This document shows positions 14,192 to 50,350 of a stretch of 54,332 nt of DNA, in pieces (position 1 is the first letter of the stretch; the number at the start of each line of letters is the position of its first letter). Source of the stretch: Chthonomonadales bacterium (GTDB lineage: Bacteria; Armatimonadota; Chthonomonadetes; Chthonomonadales; CAJBBX01); the NCBI GenBank assembly GCA_046715155.1, contig JBKJZI010000236.1:1-54332 (forward strand), given 5' to 3'. Below the pieces are notes generated by a model that was given only the letters and a program-made list of their open reading frames with translations, had not been told where the DNA came from and did not search any database. Position numbers and translations under genes: made by a program.

Positions 14192-15271
14192 TTATGGATT
14201 CGGGCTCAGAGAGCGTTGGCGGCGCGGGGCCTTTTTGATCTCGCAGCCGAACGCTTTGGTCTCCGGCGTGGCGACGGGTTTGCCCGCGAGAACGGAATCG
14301 AGGGCGTCCTTCAGGTAGCGCTGTTTGACGGCGGCGGGATCCTGATTGTCATCGATAGAGCCGCTATAGACCGCGGTTCCTTTTGCATCCACCACCCAGA
14401 CGGTCGGAGTGAACTCAACGGCGAATCGGTTCGCGAGGCTGTTCCGCATATCGCGCGCCACCGGGAAGCCGATCTTACGTTCTTCCGCGCGCGCTTTGAT
14501 CGCCACGGTCCGTTCGCCCTGGTTGGGATAGAGCCCGAGGAACGCCACGTCTTTGTAGGCCGGATCTGTGGCGAGCTCAGATAGGCGCTCCTCATACGCC
14601 TTCGTTACAGGACAATCCACGCTGAGGAAGAGGACCGCTGAAACCTTTTTGCCGGCCGGAAGCAGGGTGGCGGTCTTTGCGTTGACATCCTTCACCGAAA
14701 AGCTTGGGACCGGCTGGCCGACCTTGCCCTTCCAGTTGGAAAGCAGCAGGGCGAGGTTTTCGCCGTGGCGGGTGGTGAAAGCGCCGCCGGTGCGGTCGAA
14801 CTGGGCGTTGACATTGCGGTCGATGTGGGTGATTGTGCCCGTAGTTCCGATCACGAAGGTAACACGCGCGGCGCGGCCACTGGGCTGCAGAACGCCATAG
14901 GCTTCGCTCATCTTCTTGTCGGAATCGGCAAGCAGTGGGAAGTTCAGCATCTCCTTCTCGTGGAACGCTTTCTGGGCTTCCACGGTGTCGGTGCTGATTC
15001 CGAATACGACGGCGTTACGCTCCTGAATGCGGCCCATCACGTCCCGGAGGGCCTTAACTTCGCACGTTCATCCAGGCGTCCCGGCGCTGGGATAGAAGGC
15101 AAGCACAACGCGCTTGCCGCGGTAATCACTGAGCTTCTGGAATTTGCCGGAATGGTCGGCCATTTCAAATTCCGGCGCTTTCTGGCCGACTTCCAACTCC
15201 GCGCCCTTGGCGCCGGGCGCCAGGGCCAGCGTGCAGATTATGGCCGGAACGACCCCTCGCAATGAGATCAT
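14192..15271 (-). CDS. candidate selenoprotein: exported Bcp-type peroxiredoxin (TGA at the peroxidatic position, 15068-15070) fused to a TlpA/redoxin-like thioredoxin-fold domain
   Basis: ORFs 15068..15343 and 14192..15040 share one frame. Read-through gives VVLAFYPSAGTPG-[TGA]-TCEVKALRDVMGRIQERNAVVFGISTD, the Prx active-site block. ATG 15271 follows AAGGAG and starts a signal peptide, MISLRGVVPAIICTLALAPGAKG. The second domain has SVDCPVTKAY and the C-terminal FGCEIKK. Confidence 0.7.
15028..15064 (-). promoter_or_regulatory. candidate SECIS-like stem-loop downstream of the peroxiredoxin TGA
   Basis: RNA UGCG-AAGUUAAG-GCCC-UCCGGGACGUGAU-GGGC-CGCA forms two 4-bp helices separated by an 8-nt bulge. 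It starts 4 nt after the UGA. Drawn by eye only and not scored against a bSECIS model. Confidence 0.2.
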
Positions 15272-21802: not shown

Positions 21803-21836
21803 GCCCTCTCGCAGTTGTGATGAGGAGGAAGAGACA

Positions 21837-23141
21837 ATGAGGTCTGCCGTATTTGCGCTATCGACAGTGGTCGGTTTTTTCGCTTTTGGCCAGTCGTCGC
21901 GAGCCGAACAAGAGGCTCCGGCAACTCCGGAATCCTTGACCGCGAAAATCGAGACGCTGCGGCCTAAACAGCTCGTCTGGAGAGAGATCGGCTGGAACCG
22001 GTGCCTGCTCGATGGGCTGAAACAATCGCGTGAGCAGAAAAAGCCGGTGCTGCTCTGGGCGTTCATCAACGCGGATCCGCAAGGGGAGCGGTGCTGAGTG
22101 TTCGCAGGAGCTGCCCGTGAGGCGGTCTTCTCCAACCCGACGGTGATCCGTCGGCTGAACGCCGAATTCATTCCGGTTTCGGTCAGCGCCGCACGGATGC
22201 ATACACCGCCGCAAGATATTGAAGGGCGTTTGCTCCAAGCGGCCGGTCGCGTCGCGCCCGCTCCACAGGGAATCGCCGTGTTGAACTCCGACGGGCAGCC
22301 GCTCGCCTGGACCCTGATGTTCGACAGCGACTCCGCGGTTCTCGACTTTCTGGACTACGCGAAGCGCCGATTCCGGGAGTATGGCGACAGGTCGCGGCCA
22401 TTCGAGAGCGAGCGATTCCAGCGCTTTCCTTCCATGCGCGAGCCGGATGCCGCGTACACGGGCGGGTTACGCGCTCCGGCAAGTCATCCTCAAGGGGAAG
22501 CGTGTCCTGGCCGTCCCCAGCATCCGAAGGGCACGCTCCGGGTGCAGGTTATCGGGCGCGCTCTGGACGACCGCGGGCAGCCCGGCGCGGATACGCTCCA
22601 CCAATCGCAGTACGTTCAAGACCAGTTCGAGATTCCGGTGCCGATGCAGCGGCTGATAGCCGCGGCGCTTTCCGGCGCGGAATTCGGCCCAATCCGCGTT
22701 CCGGATGGTTTCGCCCGGATGCTCGTCTTCCACGCTTTCCTGGGGCAGATCGACGTCCGTCCGCTGGAGAATCCGAATGGGGGCCATTCAAAGATAGCTG
22801 TGTACGAGTTCTGGGCCCAGCGAACGAGTGGGAAGGACGGAAAGTCAGTCCTGCGGCTAGATGGAACCTCTCACCTTGTTACCGATGCTGCACCGCAAGG
22901 CGAAATGCAGCACTTCCGACACTCAGTGAAGCTCACGTGGGAAGGGTTCCTGGAACTGGATGGAAACCGGATTACTCGCCTGATACTGTCCGGCGAAGGC
23001 ACGGAGCGATTGACATGGAACGCGCCGCAGCCACCCACAGGAACTCTATCAGAGGTCGCTTTTCTTCCCGCCGGCCGCTCTATCAACTTCGATGGAAAAG
23101 TGCGCTACGGATTGATAGGCAAGCCGACTGGTAGCGATTGA
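21837..23141 (+). CDS. candidate selenoprotein, exported; thioredoxin-like N-domain with in-frame TGA (22095-22097) plus ~340-aa domain of unknown function; paralog of 49130..50350
   Basis: ORFs 21837..22097 and 22098..23141 are contiguous in one frame. The first has a signal peptide and ends ...KKPVLLWAFINADPQGERC-[TGA]. The second has no RBS, spacer or signal peptide and continues VFAGAAREAVFSNPTVIRRLNAEFIPV. Confidence 0.65.
22111..22125 (+). promoter_or_regulatory. candidate SECIS-like apical hairpin
   Basis: CUGCC-CGUGA-GGCGG: a 5-bp stem including one G-U, with a loop 19-23 nt after the UGA. A stronger 7-bp hairpin, CCGACGG-UGAU-CCGUCGG, lies at 22137-22154. Neither was scored against a model. 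Confidence 0.2.
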
Positions 23142-32504: not shown

Positions 32505-35500
32505 TCAGGCGACCAACTGTTCCAGGGGCTCCGTGTCGTCACAGTGAAGGGCGAGTGCGACGGCGCGGTCCAACGACAATGCTGCGCCCGCGGCCCACGC
32601 TGCCGCGAAGTCCTCCTCCCGCAGCTCCGCCTTCATCGCGCGGATGTCCAACTCACGGAGGCTCCGCGCACGCTCACCCAATGGAATCCCGAGCTTGGCT
32701 TGGGCGGATTCCGCCGCCGCCATGAGCTTCGCCGCGGTGTACGGCTGGGACTCGCAGCGGGCCACGTTTCCCAGACTCGCGATGGTCTCCGCCATACCGG
32801 CTTTGTCGCCCAGGTCGCGATTCATGTGAAGGCTTTGCTCGAAATGCTCCCTGGCGCGGCGAAGGTCCCCCTGGCGCAATCTCACTTCGCCGATATTGTG
32901 ATGGAGTAAGGCTTCGCCCCAACGGTTTCCCAGCTCTCTGAATAGGTCGAGGCTGTGCTGGTAACAGACGTACGCAGGGCGGAACTTGAGCTGCTCGAAT
33001 GCGGCGCTGCCTTCGTTGTTGAGGACTATCGCCGCCTGCGACCGGTCGCCGAGCTGCTCGAATAGCTGGCGGCTCCGGCGATAGTAGTCGATGGCAGTAA
33101 GGTGGTCATCCTGGTCCTGAGAGATACGGCCGAGGTTGTTCAGGCAGGCTGCTTCCCCCCATCGATCTCCCATCTTCTTACGAAGGTCCAGGCAGAGCTC
33201 GTAGTTCTCCCGCGCCGTTCGGCTATCGCCGCGATCACCCGCCAATACGCCGAGATTATTGTAAGCCTCCGCCTTAGCAGATGCGTCACGGAATCGCTTC
33301 GCGAGGTTCAGACTGCTTGTCAAGGCGGATTCCGCGCACTTCTGATCTCCCAAATGATAGGCCAGCACGCCCAGTCCGTTGAGCGCTCTGGCTCGCGTGA
33401 TTGTTGGCTCCTGGGAACCGGCAAGGGCGACTTCGAGCCACTGACGGCCTTCACCGACGTAACCGCGCACGAACCAGAAACGCCAAAGTGCGGCCGCCAG
33501 TCGCAGACCGATCTCGTCGTTTGTAAACCGTGACAGCGCTGCTCGGAAGTTGTCGTGTTCCATCTCGATGCGGGTGTACGCCGAAGTCGAATCCGCGCTT
33601 CGGAATGACGACTCAGCCGATTCCGCTATCTGAAGAAAATGCTCGGCATGAAGACGATAAAGCGACCTGCGATCGGCTTCATCCAGCATTTCGTCCGTAT
33701 ACTCCCGAAGTGTTTCGAGAATGCGGAAGCGCATATCGTCTTCAGCGAGAAGCTCGGTAACAATGAGCGAGCGCTGCACCAGCGCGTCAACGAGCTCGAA
33801 GGCGTCCGGTATCCCGCACACCTGCTGCGCCTGCTCCAGGGTCCATGTCCCGCGAAAGACCGAGAGTTGTGAATAGAACCGAGCCATGTCCGCCGGCAAG
33901 AGGTCGTAACTCCAGGCAATCGCTGATCTTATGGATTGGTGTCGGGGTTCTACGTTCTTCTTGCGACTCACCAGGAAACTCAGCCGCCGCCCCAACTGGC
34001 TGAGCATTTGCGTTGGGCTGATCGATTGCGCCCTGGCTGCGGCCAGCTCGATAGCCAGAGGGACTCCTTCGAGCTTTTCACATATCGCGGCGACGACCGG
34101 CGCATTGCGCGACGTGATTTGAAAGTCCGGGCTTACGGCCTGCGCGCGGTCGACGAACATCTGTACGCACGCAAACTCCATCAGCCGGTCCGGCGTGCCG
34201 GGTCGAGACGGTATGGGAAGGGGCCTGAGGGGAATGACGACTTCGCCTTGCAGATCGAGCGGTTGGCGAGAAGTGATAAGGCAGGTAAGCGTTGGCGCCT
34301 TCTGGAGTAAACCCCAGACCCACTCGGCCGCCTCTGGCTCGAGGTGCTCGAAGTTGTCGAACACGACAAGCGCTGGAGCGCCCGCCAGCGCGTTGACGGT
34401 CATCAGCTCTAAGTCTCCGACGGGTGAACGCGGAACGCCTAGCGCATTTGCGAGCGCGTCAGGAAGGGAGCGCGCGTCATGGAGATCCGCCAGCGGGACG
34501 AAATAGACCCGCTGGGCATAATCGGCGGAGATACGGTGGGAGAGCTCCAGGGCCAGCCTGGTTTTCCCCGCGCCGCCAGGGCCCGCAAGCGTCACCAGCC
34601 GCTCGGCTCCTTGCTGGAGGGCTTCCAGAAGGCGCTGCAGTTCAACCTCACGGCCAAAGAATCGTGTGAGAACCAGGGGCAGGCGTACGGGTTCGGGTGA
34701 TTTCGATGCCTGCTCCGGTTTCGGCAAATCCTCAGCCGGCGTGCTCGCGACAACGCTGCCGGGTGGTCGAGTCGCGCGGTAAGCTGGATCCCGCCGCACG
34801 AGGATTCCGGTTTGCAGCCGAATCAGCTTCGTTAGCTCGACTATCTCCGGACTGGGGCGTAGGCCGAGATCGCGACGGAGAATGCGGGACAGTCGGCGAT
34901 ACTGCTCCTGCGCGTCATGCGGCCGGCCGAGCTTCAGGTATAGCCGCATGAGATCATAGTGCGCTTCCTCGGAGTCATGCGCAGCGGAGATGGCCCGCAG
35001 TCCAAAGTCGAGGGCATCCTGGTAGGAGCCTCGTTCCTCGAGGTGCAATACGATCTGCCTGAGGGCCTGAAGATGCATCACCAGAAGTCGCTCGCGCGAG
35101 ACGAGCACCCAGTCGTCGTAGCAGCCCGGAAGGAATCCGCCATGATACATCTCGACTGCCCGAAGATGAAGTTGGAGTTTTTCGTCGGGATCGTCCGTCG
35201 ACTTAGCGCTCTCGATGAGGCTCAGAAACTCAGCGACATCGGTCGTGATGCTAGAAGGGTTAAGGCGGGCGAAACGCCGAGGAGCAATGAGGAAAGTCGA
35301 TAGGGGAACTCCCGGGGGTTCTAGCTGCTTGCGAAGCGATGTCAGCGCCTGGCTGAGGCTCTGGCTGCCGCGATCCCATTCGGAATCGGGCCAGAATAAC
35401 TCCATAAGCTCATCGCGGGAGTGGTCTTCCCTCAGGTTGTAGGCGAGATAGGCGAGGAGGAGACCGGTCTTGCGCGTCTGGAAGCGAACGATCTCGCGCC

Positions 35501-35555
35501 CATCGCTAATCGCCCTTAAGCCTCCAAAAAACTCGATTCTCCACGGCGTAATCAT
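32505..35555 (-). CDS. BTAD/SARP-type transcriptional regulator with NB-ARC-like ATPase and TPR domains
   Basis: The N-terminal winged-helix plus BTAD region has LLAYLAYNL and YHGGFLPG. Walker A is LAGPGGAGKTRLALE. The C-terminal ~400 aa are TPR repeats. The start is set at ATG 35555 (MITPWRIEFFGGLRAI); the ORF is open to 35780. Confidence 0.85.
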   Translation of the reverse strand: MITPWRIEFFGGLRAISDGREIVRFQTRKTGLLLAYLAYNLREDHSRDELMELFWPDSEWDRGSQSLSQALTSLRKQLEPPGVPLSTFLIAPRRFARLNPSSITTDVAEFLSLIESAKSTDDPDEKLQLHLRAVEMYHGGFLPGCYDDWVLVSRERLLVMHLQALRQIVLHLEERGSYQDALDFGLRAISAAHDSEEAHYDLMRLYLKLGRPHDAQEQYRRLSRILRRDLGLRPSPEIVELTKLIRLQTGILVRRDPAYRATRPPGSVVASTPAEDLPKPEQASKSPEPVRLPLVLTRFFGREVELQRLLEALQQGAERLVTLAGPGGAGKTRLALELSHRISADYAQRVYFVPLADLHDARSLPDALANALGVPRSPVGDLELMTVNALAGAPALVVFDNFEHLEPEAAEWVWGLLQKAPTLTCLITSRQPLDLQGEVVIPLRPLPIPSRPGTPDRLMEFACVQMFVDRAQAVSPDFQITSRNAPVVAAICEKLEGVPLAIELAAARAQSISPTQMLSQLGRRLSFLVSRKKNVEPRHQSIRSAIAWSYDLLPADMARFYSQLSVFRGTWTLEQAQQVCGIPDAFELVDALVQRSLIVTELLAEDDMRFRILETLREYTDEMLDEADRRSLYRLHAEHFLQIAESAESSFRSADSTSAYTRIEMEHDNFRAALSRFTNDEIGLRLAAALWRFWFVRGYVGEGRQWLEVALAGSQEPTITRARALNGLGVLAYHLGDQKCAESALTSSLNLAKRFRDASAKAEAYNNLGVLAGDRGDSRTARENYELCLDLRKKMGDRWGEAACLNNLGRISQDQDDHLTAIDYYRRSRQLFEQLGDRSQAAIVLNNEGSAAFEQLKFRPAYVCYQHSLDLFRELGNRWGEALLHHNIGEVRLRQGDLRRAREHFEQSLHMNRDLGDKAGMAETIASLGNVARCESQPYTAAKLMAAAESAQAKLGIPLGERARSLRELDIRAMKAELREEDFAAAWAAGAALSLDRAVALALHCDDTEPLEQLVA

Positions 35556-35840
35556 CGTGCCGGAGTCCCTCAACAGAAGAAACGCGCGGATCTCAGGTCC
35601 ATCCAGACCCACGGCATGAGGACGCACGCTCATCGATAACATTCTCGATACGTCACGTTCACGGTAGGCTGGATCAATTCCTCTGAATTCGCAAGATTCC
35701 GTCACGCCTCGGTCTGTCCCGGCTTCTTGTGAAGCGCCCCCAATGAAGTGTGGCGAACTGAATGATCGAGTAGACGGCATCTCCGCTTCGGCGTGCCGGC
35801 CCCTGAGCTACCTCGAGGGTAACCGGCGGATTCCGGTAGG

Positions 35841-36597: not shown

Positions 36598-37728
36598 TTA
36601 ACCGATATCCCGGCCCTGCCCGCCGTCACCGATTGCCGCCGGTTCTTTGAGAAGCTCCCGCGCGCGCTGACGGAGCCGATCCAAGGGCTGATATTCAATG
36701 CCTGTTTCGGGGCGGGCCATCCATGCAGTCCAGCCATTGCAGCCCGCAGCGCCCAGAAGATGGGCGCCAACGAAATGGATACTCCCGCGTGCGCCGTTAG
36801 AAGATATAGTGCCGTCAGCGTGGATCAATCCGAATAGTGGTCCGCTGCCAAGACGCAGCCGGTCCCCTTCCCTTACGAGACCCAATTCCAACAGGACGGA
36901 GAAAGCGACACGCTCCGGCTGAGGCGGAGGCGGCGCTAGGGATTCATCCGGCGCGGGCGTCACGGATTCGATCCTCATGCGGCCAGCGTCAACATAAGCG
37001 TCCTCGCGTTCGATTCCGATAAACCGGCGGCCCAGCCGCTTTGCGACCGACGCCGTGGTGCCCGCTCCTAAGAAAGGGTCCAGAACGGTATCGCCAGGAT
37101 TTGTGCAGCTTCGGATGATGCGATGCAAAAGGGCTTCCGGCTTCTGGGTGGTGTGGACTTTACCGTTCGCGTCGCGGAGTCGCTCTCTCCCCTGGCAGAT
37201 CGGCAGATACCAATCGCTGCGCGCCTGCAGATCTTCGTTGCCGGCCTTGAGCGACCCGTAATGAAATGTATAGCGCTTCTGTTCCGCCGACTTCTTCGCC
37301 CAAATCAGAGTTTCGTGCGCGTTGCAGAATCGGACCCCGCGGAACTGCGGCATGGGATTGGATTTGACCCAGCAGATGTCGTTGAGAATCCAATATCCGA
37401 GGTCCTGAAGGATGGAGCCGACTCGGAAGATGTTATGGTAGGTGCCGATAACCCAAATAGTCCCCGTGTCTTTCAACACGCGGCGGCATGCCAGGAGCCA
37501 CTCTCGGGTGAACCTATCGTAGGCTTCAAAGCTCATGAACTGGTCCCAACCGTCATTCACCGCATCAACGCGCGACATATCGGGCCGGTAGAGCTCTTTG
37601 CGAAGCTGAAGGTTATACGGAGGGTCCGCAAAGACGAGGTCCGCGCACTGCTCAGGGAGCGACTGCATAACCTGAATGCAGTCGCCCTGGATGATGTCAC
37701 CGCCGTCCATTTCGATCTTCACGTTCAC
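36598..37728 (-). CDS. ccrM: CcrM-type beta-class N6-adenine DNA methyltransferase (predicted GANTC specificity); no adjacent endonuclease
   Basis: LVFADPPYNLQL (motif IV DPPY), VLDPFLGAGTTASVAKRLGRRFIGIERE (motif I). There are long collinear blocks I recall from Caulobacter CcrM: DAVNDGWDQF, YDRFTREWL, RRVLKDTGTIWVIGTYHNIFRVG, NPMPQFRGVRFCNAHETLIWA, KRYTFHY, TQKPEALL. The CcrM-specific C-terminal domain is also present (GSIHFVGA...CNGWTAW). Confidence 0.9.
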   Translation of the reverse strand: MNVKIEMDGGDIIQGDCIQVMQSLPEQCADLVFADPPYNLQLRKELYRPDMSRVDAVNDGWDQFMSFEAYDRFTREWLLACRRVLKDTGTIWVIGTYHNIFRVGSILQDLGYWILNDICWVKSNPMPQFRGVRFCNAHETLIWAKKSAEQKRYTFHYGSLKAGNEDLQARSDWYLPICQGRERLRDANGKVHTTQKPEALLHRIIRSCTNPGDTVLDPFLGAGTTASVAKRLGRRFIGIEREDAYVDAGRMRIESVTPAPDESLAPPPPQPERVAFSVLLELGLVREGDRLRLGSGPLFGLIHADGTISSNGARGSIHFVGAHLLGAAGCNGWTAWMARPETGIEYQPLDRLRQRARELLKEPAAIGDGGQGRDIG

Positions 37729-48501: not shown

Positions 48502-48771
48502 ATGAGGAACTTGACTCAGGAGGAGAAGGAGTCGATTGCGCGGCGGGCAGACCAGATGTACGATGAGAAGATCAAGCCGCTAGAGGCCGAATTTGAGGGA
48601 AAGATTGCGTCCGTGGATCTCGACACGGGTGATTACGAGATCGCTGATACTCCACTCCTGGCGACCACGAAACTCCGCGAGCGGCGACCCAATGGAAACT
48701 TCTTTGCGTTCCGAATAGGCTATGACGCGGTTTATGCCATAGGCGCGAGGCTGCACCGGCGGAGTAAATGA
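48502..48771 (+). CDS. small hypothetical protein, upstream partner of the retropepsin-like protease
   Basis: 89 aa. GKIASVDLDTGDYEIADTPLLAT...FFAFRIGYDAVYAIG. The stop overlaps the next start (ATGA). Confidence 0.7.
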   Translation: MRNLTQEEKESIARRADQMYDEKIKPLEAEFEGKIASVDLDTGDYEIADTPLLATTKLRERRPNGNFFAFRIGYDAVYAIGARLHRRSK

Positions 48772-49133
48772 TAAGAGGCGTGGTGGGCGGCCTTCAAGCA
48801 TTAGTGAGCCTGGAAGTCATTGATGCGTACGGTCGACCGCTTTCGTTGGAGGGAATCGTCGATACAGGGTTCGCCGGATATCTAACACTGCCTTCGGACC
48901 TTATTCAAAAGCTCCAGTTGCGTTGGACTCACCGCATGTACTCTCGTTTGGCGGGGAATATACCGATGCTGTCCGAGGTTTACGAAGCTACGGTCCACTT
49001 CCGCGATGTCAAGGAAAGAATCGAAGTTTTGGAGATGGAAGACGACATCCTGCTCGGCATGTCACTCTTGATCGGAACCGAAATTCGAATCCAGGTGGAG
49101 GAAGGTGGACTTGTGGAAATTGAGCCTTTATGA
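48768..49133 (+). CDS. clan AA (retropepsin-like) aspartic protease
   Basis: IVDTGFAGYLTLPSDL (D-T-G active-site triplet). 121 aa. ATGA overlaps at both ends. Confidence 0.78.
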   Translation: MIRGVVGGLQALVSLEVIDAYGRPLSLEGIVDTGFAGYLTLPSDLIQKLQLRWTHRMYSRLAGNIPMLSEVYEATVHFRDVKERIEVLEMEDDILLGMSLLIGTEIRIQVEEGGLVEIEPL

Positions 49134-50350
49134 ACGTCAGGATGTTCGGAATCATCGCCAGCTTACTCGCTTCTGCAATCCTGTGGGCCAGCGGGGACAC
49201 GATATCGGAACTGGAGGGGAAGATCGCCGCGGTATTGCCGACCGCCGAGGAAGATGCTTTTCTGCAGATTCCGTGGCGGATGAATGTGCTTCGAGCCCGG
49301 GCGGAATCTGCTCGGACGGGGAAGCCATTGTTCATCTGGTCTATGAACGGGCATCCTTTCGGCCACACTTGAGCGAACGGTCTGCGGAACCGGCGGTTGA
49401 CGCTGAATCATCCTGAAATCCGGCGAAAGCTCACGTCGGACTTCATTCCCACGGTAGCGCCCAGCACCGATCCCTCTTTCAGCGACAGCGAGGCTGGAAA
49501 ATGGTTCTTCCGCATGGCCGATACGAACAAGGAGTCGGGCGGGCATTACCAGGGCTTTTACATCGTTAACGCCGACGGAATTGGTCCCACACGCCATTTT
49601 GATCCGATCGGCCATTACCCCACCGGTCCGCTGCTCAAGTTCATGGACGACGCTTACAGAGTCGTCCGGGCGAAACCAGTATCCAAGACCGAGATTTCGG
49701 AAAGCCAGCTCAGCCTGCCGCCGATGGCCCGCCCGGACCCGTCGACTTCCGTGCTTCGGATCGTGAACCGCATTGTTGGCGCACCTGCCGACCCCCACCT
49801 TCTCAACAATGCGCCGGACCGAGACTTCATCTGGGTTTTGCGCGAAGAGGTCAAGGAAATCGTACAACTCGCGCGCCAGGGAGGTGAATTCGCTCTTCCC
49901 CGACCGATGGTCGGCCGTCTCGTCCGCTATCACCTCGTGGACAACCTGGGCGGCCGAACGCAGTTCTTCATGGGTGCGCGGGAAGTCAAGCGGGCGGATT
50001 TCCGGGCACGCGTCCTGCGCGTAGGACCACGATTCCTAGAGCTAAGTCTGAACGGAACTTACGCGTCCACTCAGGAAAAGAACGCTTTCGGAATCGAAGG
50101 CGAGATCCAAGGTGAATTGAGAATTGACACTCAAACGCTGCGGATCACGCGCCTTCGCGCATTCGCTACATCACAGGCGTGGGGCGGTCCGGTCAATGGG
50201 GCTGAGACACCTCCCCCGGGAAAGTTCAAGATAATCCACGCCCTGACCGAGGCAGACGACGTGATCGCCCGCAACGTCCCTCCCGCCTACGGCTATTCCA
50301 CAACCTACCTCGACGCCGGCTACCGGAGTCTTCCGAAGTACACCCCCTAA
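49130..50350 (+). CDS. candidate selenoprotein, exported; paralog of 21837..23141 with in-frame TGA at 49370-49372
   Basis: ORFs 49130..49372 and 49397..50350 share one frame, with only sense codons between them. Read-through gives GKPLFIWSMNGHPFGHT-[TGA]-ANGLRNRRLTLNHPEIRRKLTSDFIPTV. The TGA-to-FIP spacing (24 residues) is identical to the paralog. Signal peptide MNVRMFGIIASLLASAILWASG. Confidence 0.65.
49374..49395 (+). promoter_or_regulatory. candidate SECIS-like hairpin
   Basis: CG-AA-CGGU-CUGCGGA-ACCG-G-CG: 6 bp with a small internal loop, starting 2 nt after the UGA. Drawn by eye only. Confidence 0.2.

Follow-up and report, generated by a model that had tools for sequence, protein, structure and literature searches.

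The locus at positions 21837–23141 (forward strand) of a contig assigned to a Chthonomonadales bacterium raises the question of whether a TGA triplet inside its reading frame ends one gene and precedes another, or instead encodes selenocysteine (Sec) within a single gene. The window, i.e. the whole stretch of DNA that was analysed, comprises 54,332 nucleotides. We conclude, with a probability of about 90%, that 21837–23141 is a genuine Sec-encoding gene of an uncatalogued family, referred to below as family 1. The complete gene contains 434 codons plus a stop, with a single in-frame UGA as the predicted Sec codon, and its ordinary stop is the TGA at 23139–23141. A Shine–Dalgarno-like AGGAGG, read from the sequence (21823–21828, forward strand), precedes the ATG at 21837 by 8 nt. 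The N-terminal 23 residues (MRSAVFALSTVVGFFAFGQSSRA; 21837–21905, forward strand) resemble a signal peptide as judged by eye, with likely cleavage after SRA. In relatives, too, the frame before the TGA is open and starts with a hydrophobic stretch; the initial annotation had placed a signal peptide on the upstream open reading frame (ORF; 21837–22097). The upstream half ends ..KKPVLLWAFINADPQGERC, its last codon being TGC at 22092–22094, and is followed directly by the TGA at 22095–22097. The frame continues unchanged past this triplet, from GTG at 22098 onward to 23139–23141, and the GC content at third codon positions is alike before and after it (0.66 and 0.69). The sequence thus confirms an in-frame TGA immediately after a Cys codon with the same frame resuming at the next codon, as had been proposed. 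The Cys-Sec dipeptide (22092–22097, forward strand) is the predicted redox centre and, by model, would lie at the N-terminus of helix α1.

Conservation of the TGA was assessed in a scan of one genome per species, which yielded 60 family-1 loci, 58 of which were aligned at the TGA column. All carriers found are metagenome-assembled genomes (MAGs). Nearly all of the loci belong to Planctomycetota (Pirellulales, Gemmataceae and Isosphaerales) and Verrucomicrobiota, and a few are in MAGs labelled Armatimonadota or Acidobacteriota. The column is TGA in 57 of the 58 instances, always in the context ..DDxRC-TGA-VFAGAAR.., and the R-C-[column]-V flanks are invariant across all 58 aligned sequences. 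Both halves of the gene, on either side of the TGA, are conserved in 57 relatives. The sole non-TGA instance (L061) has CGA at this position and has lost the rest of the gene, including the C-terminal domain. Damage is also seen in other MAG copies, with frameshifts in L043, L056 and L062 and internal deletions in L057, L060 and L061; these copies are either pseudogenes or assembly errors.

The relatives support one gene rather than two. A search of the joined protein against 5.8 billion proteins gave 185 matches, of which the best 120 were listed; these cover only the post-TGA part (∼80%) of the query. The nine matches that were read all start with M or V followed by FAGAAREAVFSNP, i.e. at the codon immediately 3′ of the TGA. 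When the N-terminal 86 residues served as query in an exhaustive HMMER search, 175 representative clusters were recovered, and the pre-TGA Cys aligns with the last residue of the match in 129 of the best 150. Of the other 21, 18 are short fragments or alignments that break off early and do not extend past the column, and three run on with frameshift-like junk tails. These three (P0146, P0244 and P0278) had been considered as possible read-through or Cys forms and were rejected on account of those tails. In relatives, the N-terminal signal-peptide piece is invariably followed directly, in the same frame, by the post-TGA piece, and the codon after the TGA is GTC, GTA or GTT, none of which is a start codon, in 20 of the 58 family-1 genes. 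One metagenomic contig of 2076 nt (L002; Joint Genome Institute, JGI, 3300022563) carries a single frame of 691 codons at 2–2074 with two family-1 modules and two TGAs, both in the context ..GRC-TGA-V[CY]AGAVRE.., and is a predicted natural fusion with two Sec residues. Together, the non-start codons and the double-TGA frame of L002 exclude termination followed by reinitiation. The prospect, raised by the initial annotation, that homologues might consistently be two separate genes is therefore contradicted. Some variation in arrangement was observed: L013 carries two family members less than 2.3 kb apart (at 205 and 2498), and the N-terminal pieces P0141 (350 residues) and P0133 (215 residues) have 150–280 extra unrelated residues before the ..VAWREIAWK.. 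helix.

A bacterial selenocysteine insertion sequence (bSECIS) had been expected within 22098–22160, and a hairpin supported by covariation was indeed found there. Its core, GCUGCC-CGUGA-GGCGGU (22110–22126, forward strand), has its loop at 22116–22120, and the stem begins 12 nt after the UGA. The family-1 consensus is 5′-GCCGCC-CGUGA-GGCGGU-3′ with a 6-bp stem. No gaps interrupt the alignment of the 58 sequences near the TGA, and 99.4% of the cells in the core stem are paired. In three of the six stem pairs both partners have changed (from C-G to U-A or G-C), 500 shuffles yielded no result as good as that observed, and sliding the partner strand reduced pairing to 33–69%. Codon usage is also constrained within the hairpin. 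The loop Arg codon is CGT in 58 of 58 sequences, whereas the Arg before the Cys is encoded by CGC (30), CGT (11), CGA (9) or CGG (8). The Ala codons within the hairpin are GCC in 50 and 51 of 58 and GCG in 49 of 58, whereas the Ala two codons upstream of the stem is GCC (35), GCG (12), GCA (7) or GCT (4); the Glu codon inside the hairpin is GAG in 55 of 58. Such frozen synonymous sites show a constraint at the RNA level directly.

Published bSECIS criteria are a loop of 3–9 nt, a G in the first two loop positions, a distance of 16–37 nt from the UGA to the loop and a minimum free energy of at most −7.5 kcal/mol (PMC13188914). The hairpin at 22110–22126 has a 5-nt loop whose second and third bases are G and U, an 18-nt distance from UGA to loop and a core energy of −7.5 kcal/mol, and so lies within these limits; the consensus has an energy of −9.7 kcal/mol. 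A possible lower-stem extension (22106–22131, forward strand; bulged U at 22126) would bring the window hairpin to −11.6 kcal/mol and is weakly supported across relatives, in which 82% of cells are paired and the outer pairs are often broken. As the lower stem is poorly conserved, we claim only the 6-bp core. An Rfam scan of the window returned one tRNA only, and Rfam has no model for this hairpin. As in the fdhF-type and Zhang–Gladyshev consensus bSECIS, the element is in frame and directly downstream of the UGA. It differs from them in its stem of only 5–6 bp and in a fixed CGUGN loop that is common to two protein families.

The second of these families is represented by a paralogous selenoprotein gene (49130–50350, forward strand; 406 codons), 27 kb away in the window, with a predicted Sec TGA at 49370–49372 (forward strand). 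BLASTP of the two joined window proteins places their TGAs in the same column (E value of 2e-7, 26% identity over 189 residues). The recurrence of the TGA at this column in the paralog, on which the initial annotation had relied, is thus upheld; the preceding residue is, however, Thr (..GHPFGHT-TGA-ANGL..) and not Cys. The 49130–50350 protein has few close relatives (11 matches). Family 2 as a whole was collected by a metagenome profile scan that returned 395 relatives, from which 80 loci were kept, 77 of them with readable upstream sequence. An hhalign comparison of families 1 and 2 gave a probability of 98.1% and an E value of 8.5e-14 over 252 columns that span both domains. TGA occupies the column in all 77 readable family-2 instances, and the codon after it is AAC or AAT in most. 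With 57 of 58 instances in family 1 as well, its recurrence at this column greatly exceeds what chance would produce. The motif GC[T/G/V]-U-NN[G/V] is present in 72 of the 77. The individual types are GCT-U-NNG (61), GCG-U-NNV (9), GCV-U-NNG (2), GST-U-NNG (1), GCT-U-GNG (1) and a minor GHT-U-ANG subtype (3) to which the window paralog belongs. The family-2 hairpin lies at the same distance from the TGA as that of family 1 and has a CGUGN loop. Its covariation is strong, with a score of 0.594 (0.286 when shuffled) and 76 cells in which both partners have changed.

A clade of family 2 has Cys in place of Sec. It contains about 35 full-length proteins of 369–387 residues with an invariant SGHPLGC[TV]CNNG motif. 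These proteins (P0129 and P0282–P0314) start MT..D.IT..EF and have no hydrophobic leader, whereas the Sec forms of family 2 have signal peptides, a natural contrast in which to ask why selenium is used. Judged from sequence, the superfamily has the classical pairing of predicted Sec and Cys forms through its sister family. One of the Cys forms is labelled Gemmatimonadales, outside the Planctomycetes–Verrucomicrobia–Chlamydiae group. A further contig of 2 kb (L063) carries tandem family-2 genes at 419 and 1775, of the HT-U-ANG and then the CT-U-NNG type, and the first of the two TGAs was translated as Trp by JGI. Upstream of the paralog in the window, an ORF of 121 residues (48768–49133, forward strand) shows a weak retropepsin-like match (gag-asp_proteas; E value of 8.5e-4). 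The stop codon of this ORF and the start codon of the 49130–50350 gene overlap (ATGA at 49130–49133), which suggests translational coupling of the two.

The fold was examined using AlphaFold2 models of P0129, a natural full-length Cys homologue, and of P0001, which is the post-TGA part of the window protein. The P0129 model (predicted local distance difference test score, pLDDT, of 79; predicted template modelling score, pTM, of 0.80) adopts a β-α-β-α-β-β-α thioredoxin fold with strands at residues 49–55, 88–94, 126–130 and 136–140 and helices at 65–75, 104–115 and 145–157. Strand 1 is of the KPxxxW type, and C62-T63-C64 directly precedes the helix at 65–75. In this model a single fold spans the TGA column, in keeping with the earlier proposal that the two halves form one thioredoxin fold. 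Sec would therefore stand where thioredoxins have their nucleophilic cysteine. The partner Cys is N-terminal to Sec, as the adjacent residue in family 1 and, for most members of family 2, at −2. Alignments to the P0129 model map the thioredoxin-like domain of the window protein to approximately 21954–22382 (forward strand), in the order helix VWREIGWNRCLL, β1 (KPVLLWAF), active-site loop, α1, β2 (FIPV), APQG loop, β3, β4 and α3. Foldseek matched the N-terminal domain of P0129 to the Thioredox_DsbH structure 7tkv, with a probability of 1.00, and to AGR3/AGR2, with probabilities between 0.98 and 1.0 (1.0 for AGR3). START, lipocalin and Bet v 1-like matches for P0129 had probabilities of at most 0.14 and were not used as evidence. 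Pfam gave subthreshold scores to PF03190 (Thioredox_DsbH) and PF13899 (Thioredoxin_7) of 12.0–17.1 bits against a cutoff of 27, with the matches falling on this same region, and a sequence search of the PDB with the family profile returned nothing.

The remainder of the protein forms a β-rich C-terminal domain of about 250 residues (22383–23138, forward strand) with a family-1-specific H..G..CP segment, which belongs to no named family and has no Pfam or NCBIfam match. The β-rich C-terminal domain of the Cys homologue, of about 200 residues, likewise lacks a relative in the PDB. The P0001 model (pLDDT of 89, pTM of 0.84) comprises the remaining part of the thioredoxin fold and, after it, a domain of long antiparallel strands. 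A fold search of the PDB with P0001 gave no match at E < 1e-3 and only scattered β-barrel proteins. Additional domains are present in relatives. An LTXXQ (CpxP/Spy-like) region is C-terminal in many (P0008, P0016, P0028 and others) and was found in all five of the longer relatives (about 540–620 residues) that were read. The same region is N-terminal in five loci (L011, L027, L029, L032 and L038), and L044 has a C-terminal PD40/TolB-like propeller in place of LTXXQ. This shuffling of LTXXQ and PD40 domains points to the cell envelope.

A separate gene on the same contig bears on whether Sec is the meaning of UGA in this organism. The gene (14192–15271, reverse strand) encodes an AhpC/TSA peroxiredoxin that has a signal-like N-terminus and, at its C-terminus, a thioredoxin-like domain. 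Its TGA at 15068–15070 falls at the peroxidatic position (..FYPSAGTPG-U-TCE), giving a PxxxTxxU motif that is the signature of known Sec-peroxiredoxins (PMC13188914). This gene has the same anatomy as the family-1 gene, with a TGA at the catalytic Cys splitting the called ORFs, although the family (PF00578) is unrelated. As a predicted selenoprotein, it provides independent evidence that UGA is decoded as Sec in this organism. A possible hairpin lies 3′ of its TGA.

Several observations weigh against the assignment of 21837–23141 as a Sec-encoding gene. No selA, selB, selD or tRNA-Sec gene is present in the 54-kb window, and ARAGORN detected no tRNA-Sec in the window or in the 52 family-1 loci scanned. 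On the supporting side, complete selA/B/C/D sets are reported for Gemmata obscuriglobus, Isosphaera pallida and two Porphyra-associated (Rhodopirellula-like) planctomycetes (PMC4807772). Clustering of flanking ORFs across about 60 family-1 loci and the window revealed no conserved neighbour gene to indicate a substrate or reductant; what looked like clusters proved to be the family-1 gene itself in overlapping frames, along with sulfatases in eight loci. The paralog at 49130–50350 keeps only 3 bp at the usual hairpin position of its family (49385–49401) and has an alternative candidate hairpin, CGGCG-GUUGA-CGCUG (49391–49405, forward strand; −7.6 kcal/mol), so that the efficiency with which it is decoded is uncertain. 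The homologue search proposed by the initial annotation uncovered the Cys clade in family 2, but for family 1 no Cys form was present among the matches listed from the 5.8 billion proteins (185 matches for the joined protein and 175 for the N-terminal query). Finally, the active-site loop of the P0129 model has pLDDT values below 50, and its local geometry is of low confidence.

There is direct support for a single gene, for conservation of its UGA, for a SECIS-like hairpin, for a site at helix 1 of a thioredoxin fold and for the Sec/Cys pairing of the sister family; from these we infer SelB-dependent insertion, export and a catalytic cycle as follows. SelB with Sec-tRNA(Sec) would bind the hairpin at 22110–22126, and Sec would be inserted at UGA 22095–22097 without termination. 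The product, of about 410 residues, would be exported via its signal peptide. Its N-terminal DsbH/Thioredoxin_7-type fold would carry a vicinal Cys-Sec pair where thioredoxins have CxxC. The selenolate may attack an oxidised envelope substrate (a disulfide, sulfenic acid or peroxide), the neighbouring Cys would resolve the adduct to give an intramolecular selenenylsulfide, and an envelope reductant would recycle the latter; the β-rich C-terminal domain may provide substrate or ligand binding. For this specific redox chemistry, from selenolate attack through the Cys-Sec selenenylsulfide to recycling, we regard the odds as evenly balanced. A bolder proposal, which we put forward only tentatively, is that family 1 represents an obligate-Sec envelope enzyme with a chemistry beyond the reach of cysteine. 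It would use a vicinal Cys-Sec selenenylsulfide inside a thioredoxin fold, coupled to a β-rich domain of a kind not seen before that may bind a ligand, and its substrate would be one found specifically in Planctomycetes and Verrucomicrobia. Discovery pipelines based on Sec/Cys pairs would have missed it for want of a Cys form. If so, the family-1 tandem fusions would join a small number of bacterial proteins in which repeated modules bring two Sec residues together.

One serious alternative retains the selenoprotein and changes its function, with the Cys-Sec pair of family 1 or the His-x3-Cys-x-Sec arrangement of family 2 (GHPLGCTU) binding a metal or metalloid (Hg, Cu, As or Cd) and the C-terminal domain acting as carrier or sensor. 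Several catalogued bacterial selenoproteins with a CU pair are indeed metal-related (HgcA, the MerB-like SaoL, MbdU and a 2Fe-2S binding family; PMC13188914). Potential additional ligands are conserved nearby (the His of GHPLGC in family 2, and H217 and C223 in family 1), and the near-obligate use of Sec speaks for a property not available from Cys. However, the modelled site coincides exactly with that at which thioredoxin-fold oxidoreductases hold their redox motif, family 1 lacks the His and reads ..DRPxDDxRCU.., and no metal-resistance genes are conserved nearby; we therefore consider metal binding to be unlikely as the function of a Sec-encoding gene at this locus.

The remaining explanations dispense with Sec. 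Automated gene callers annotate two genes in every database record seen, which for the window would mean an 86-residue exported peptide that stops at TGA 22095–22097 and reinitiation at GTG 22098 to give a protein of 347 residues. The GTG does follow the TGA, and a GGGGAG lies about 12 nt upstream. Such an arrangement is nevertheless extremely improbable, since the codons after the TGA in 20 of 58 family-1 genes (GTC, GTA or GTT) and in most of family 2 (Asn, AAC or AAT) cannot start translation, the Cys-form homologues are single polypeptides across the column and the covarying hairpin is conserved. It would also break the modelled thioredoxin fold between strand 1 and helix 1 and leave the post-TGA part without a signal peptide, even though this part carries envelope-type domains in relatives. 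That UGA is read as a standard amino acid (Trp or Gly, for instance), whether by near-cognate read-through or because the code is reassigned, is suggested by a JGI record (P0123) that translates the codon as Trp. This translation was not reproduced under table 11, the codon being a plain TGA, and P0123 was rejected as a non-TGA form because its source had translated the TGA under another genetic code. That TGA is the ordinary stop of 21837–23141 itself argues against a reassigned code, and it is likewise the stop of many neighbouring genes. With the column pairing with Cys in homologues, a SECIS-type hairpin kept at a fixed distance and a UGA at the catalytic Cys position of the peroxiredoxin on the same contig, this explanation is very improbable. 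A pseudogene would require only a single-base change of a former Cys codon (TGC to TGA), and some MAG relatives are damaged (the frameshifts of L043, L056 and L062 and the deletions of L057, L060 and L061). Against this, independent sequences carry the TGA in 57 of 58 cases for family 1 and in 77 of 77 for family 2, purifying selection is strong both before and after it, and the only non-TGA copy, the CGA of L061, is the one that lost the rest of its gene. The chance that the TGA is a nonsense mutation is negligible; the initial annotation had already found this hard to reconcile with the two window copies. The preferred reading thus remains that of a single gene in which UGA encodes Sec.

Other genes in the window include a DUF1559 protein with an N-methyl motif and a sulfatase, a gene content in keeping with a planctomycete. 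A protein of 1091 residues with BTAD, AAA (NACHT-like) and TPR regions, of the STAND type, is encoded at 32505–35780 (reverse strand). Near it, a DNA methylase with a RAMA domain is encoded at 36598–37728 (reverse strand).

As the initial annotation had surmised, the family appears unassigned: no match above cutoff was obtained in Pfam, in NCBIfam release 20 or in the 2026 catalogue of 119 families. By model, motif or architecture it matches nothing in the May 2026 table of these 119 prokaryotic selenoprotein families (PMC13188914). The profile comparison covers NCBIfam release 20 and Pfam models, with catalogued families that have a CDD identifier only lying outside the scan. The family is accordingly uncatalogued in Pfam, NCBIfam and the 119-family list, and a mention in supplementary lists is possible. 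The only curated selenoprotein models with any signal are those of the VPGUxxT thioredoxin-like selenoproteins of types 1 and 2 (NF041382 and NF041383; `hypothetical protein OS_HP5'), and when six joined proteins were compared with NCBIfam nothing else matched at E ≤ 1. Scores to these two models are 14–21 bits against cutoffs of 350 and 275 and involve only about 70 N-terminal profile positions. The match takes in the strand-1 region, and both groups are thioredoxin-like with Sec. The families described here differ in their motifs (RCU-VFAG or GCTU-NNG) and in their C-terminal 250 residues, which are unmatched. The selenoprotein families newly reported from Global Ocean Sampling (GOS) data are also different from the present one. 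The GOS study relied on Sec/Cys pairs, which would explain why family 1, of which no Cys form was detected, was missed; it is a concrete case of the blind spot of these methods. In every database record seen, the proteins are called hypothetical and split into ORFs of about 86 and about 300–350 residues (hundreds of clusters). One profile and one SECIS model would mend this annotation across Planctomycetota and Verrucomicrobiota. The compact CGUGN hairpin shared by the two families could moreover be what determines recognition by SelB in these phyla, and it may find use in recoding work.

The best structural relatives are PF03190 (DsbH/DUF255; 7tkv, Brucella Bab1_2064), PF13899 and AGR2/AGR3, which have the same order of fold elements. 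Families of the DsbH, Thioredoxin_7 and AGR type use CxxC or CxxS. The present families have instead C-U or CxU, with the partner Cys N-terminal to Sec, and a different second domain. Such a Cys-Sec or Cys-x-Sec arrangement is unusual for a thioredoxin fold, and the domain attached to it is without a solved relative. Mammalian thioredoxin reductase ends in Gly-Cys-Sec-Gly, the adjacent pair of which can form an eight-membered selenenylsulfide ring; the reductase is a flavoenzyme that carries the pair on its flexible C-terminal tail, and Sec insertion depends on a eukaryotic SECIS in the 3′ untranslated region. In family 1 the pair is predicted to lie inside a thioredoxin fold and the SECIS is bacterial and in frame, so that the reductase may serve as an analogy for cycling of the pair, with no homology implied. 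The significance for selenium biology and annotation is substantial, although this is still one further family of a familiar general type with a putative function. Compared with known systems, the family belongs to the established class of bacterial thioredoxin-fold selenoproteins with an in-frame SECIS; what is new is the C-U or CxU motif with an N-terminal partner Cys, the unassigned second domain, the near-obligate use of Sec in family 1 and the predicted two-Sec fusions.

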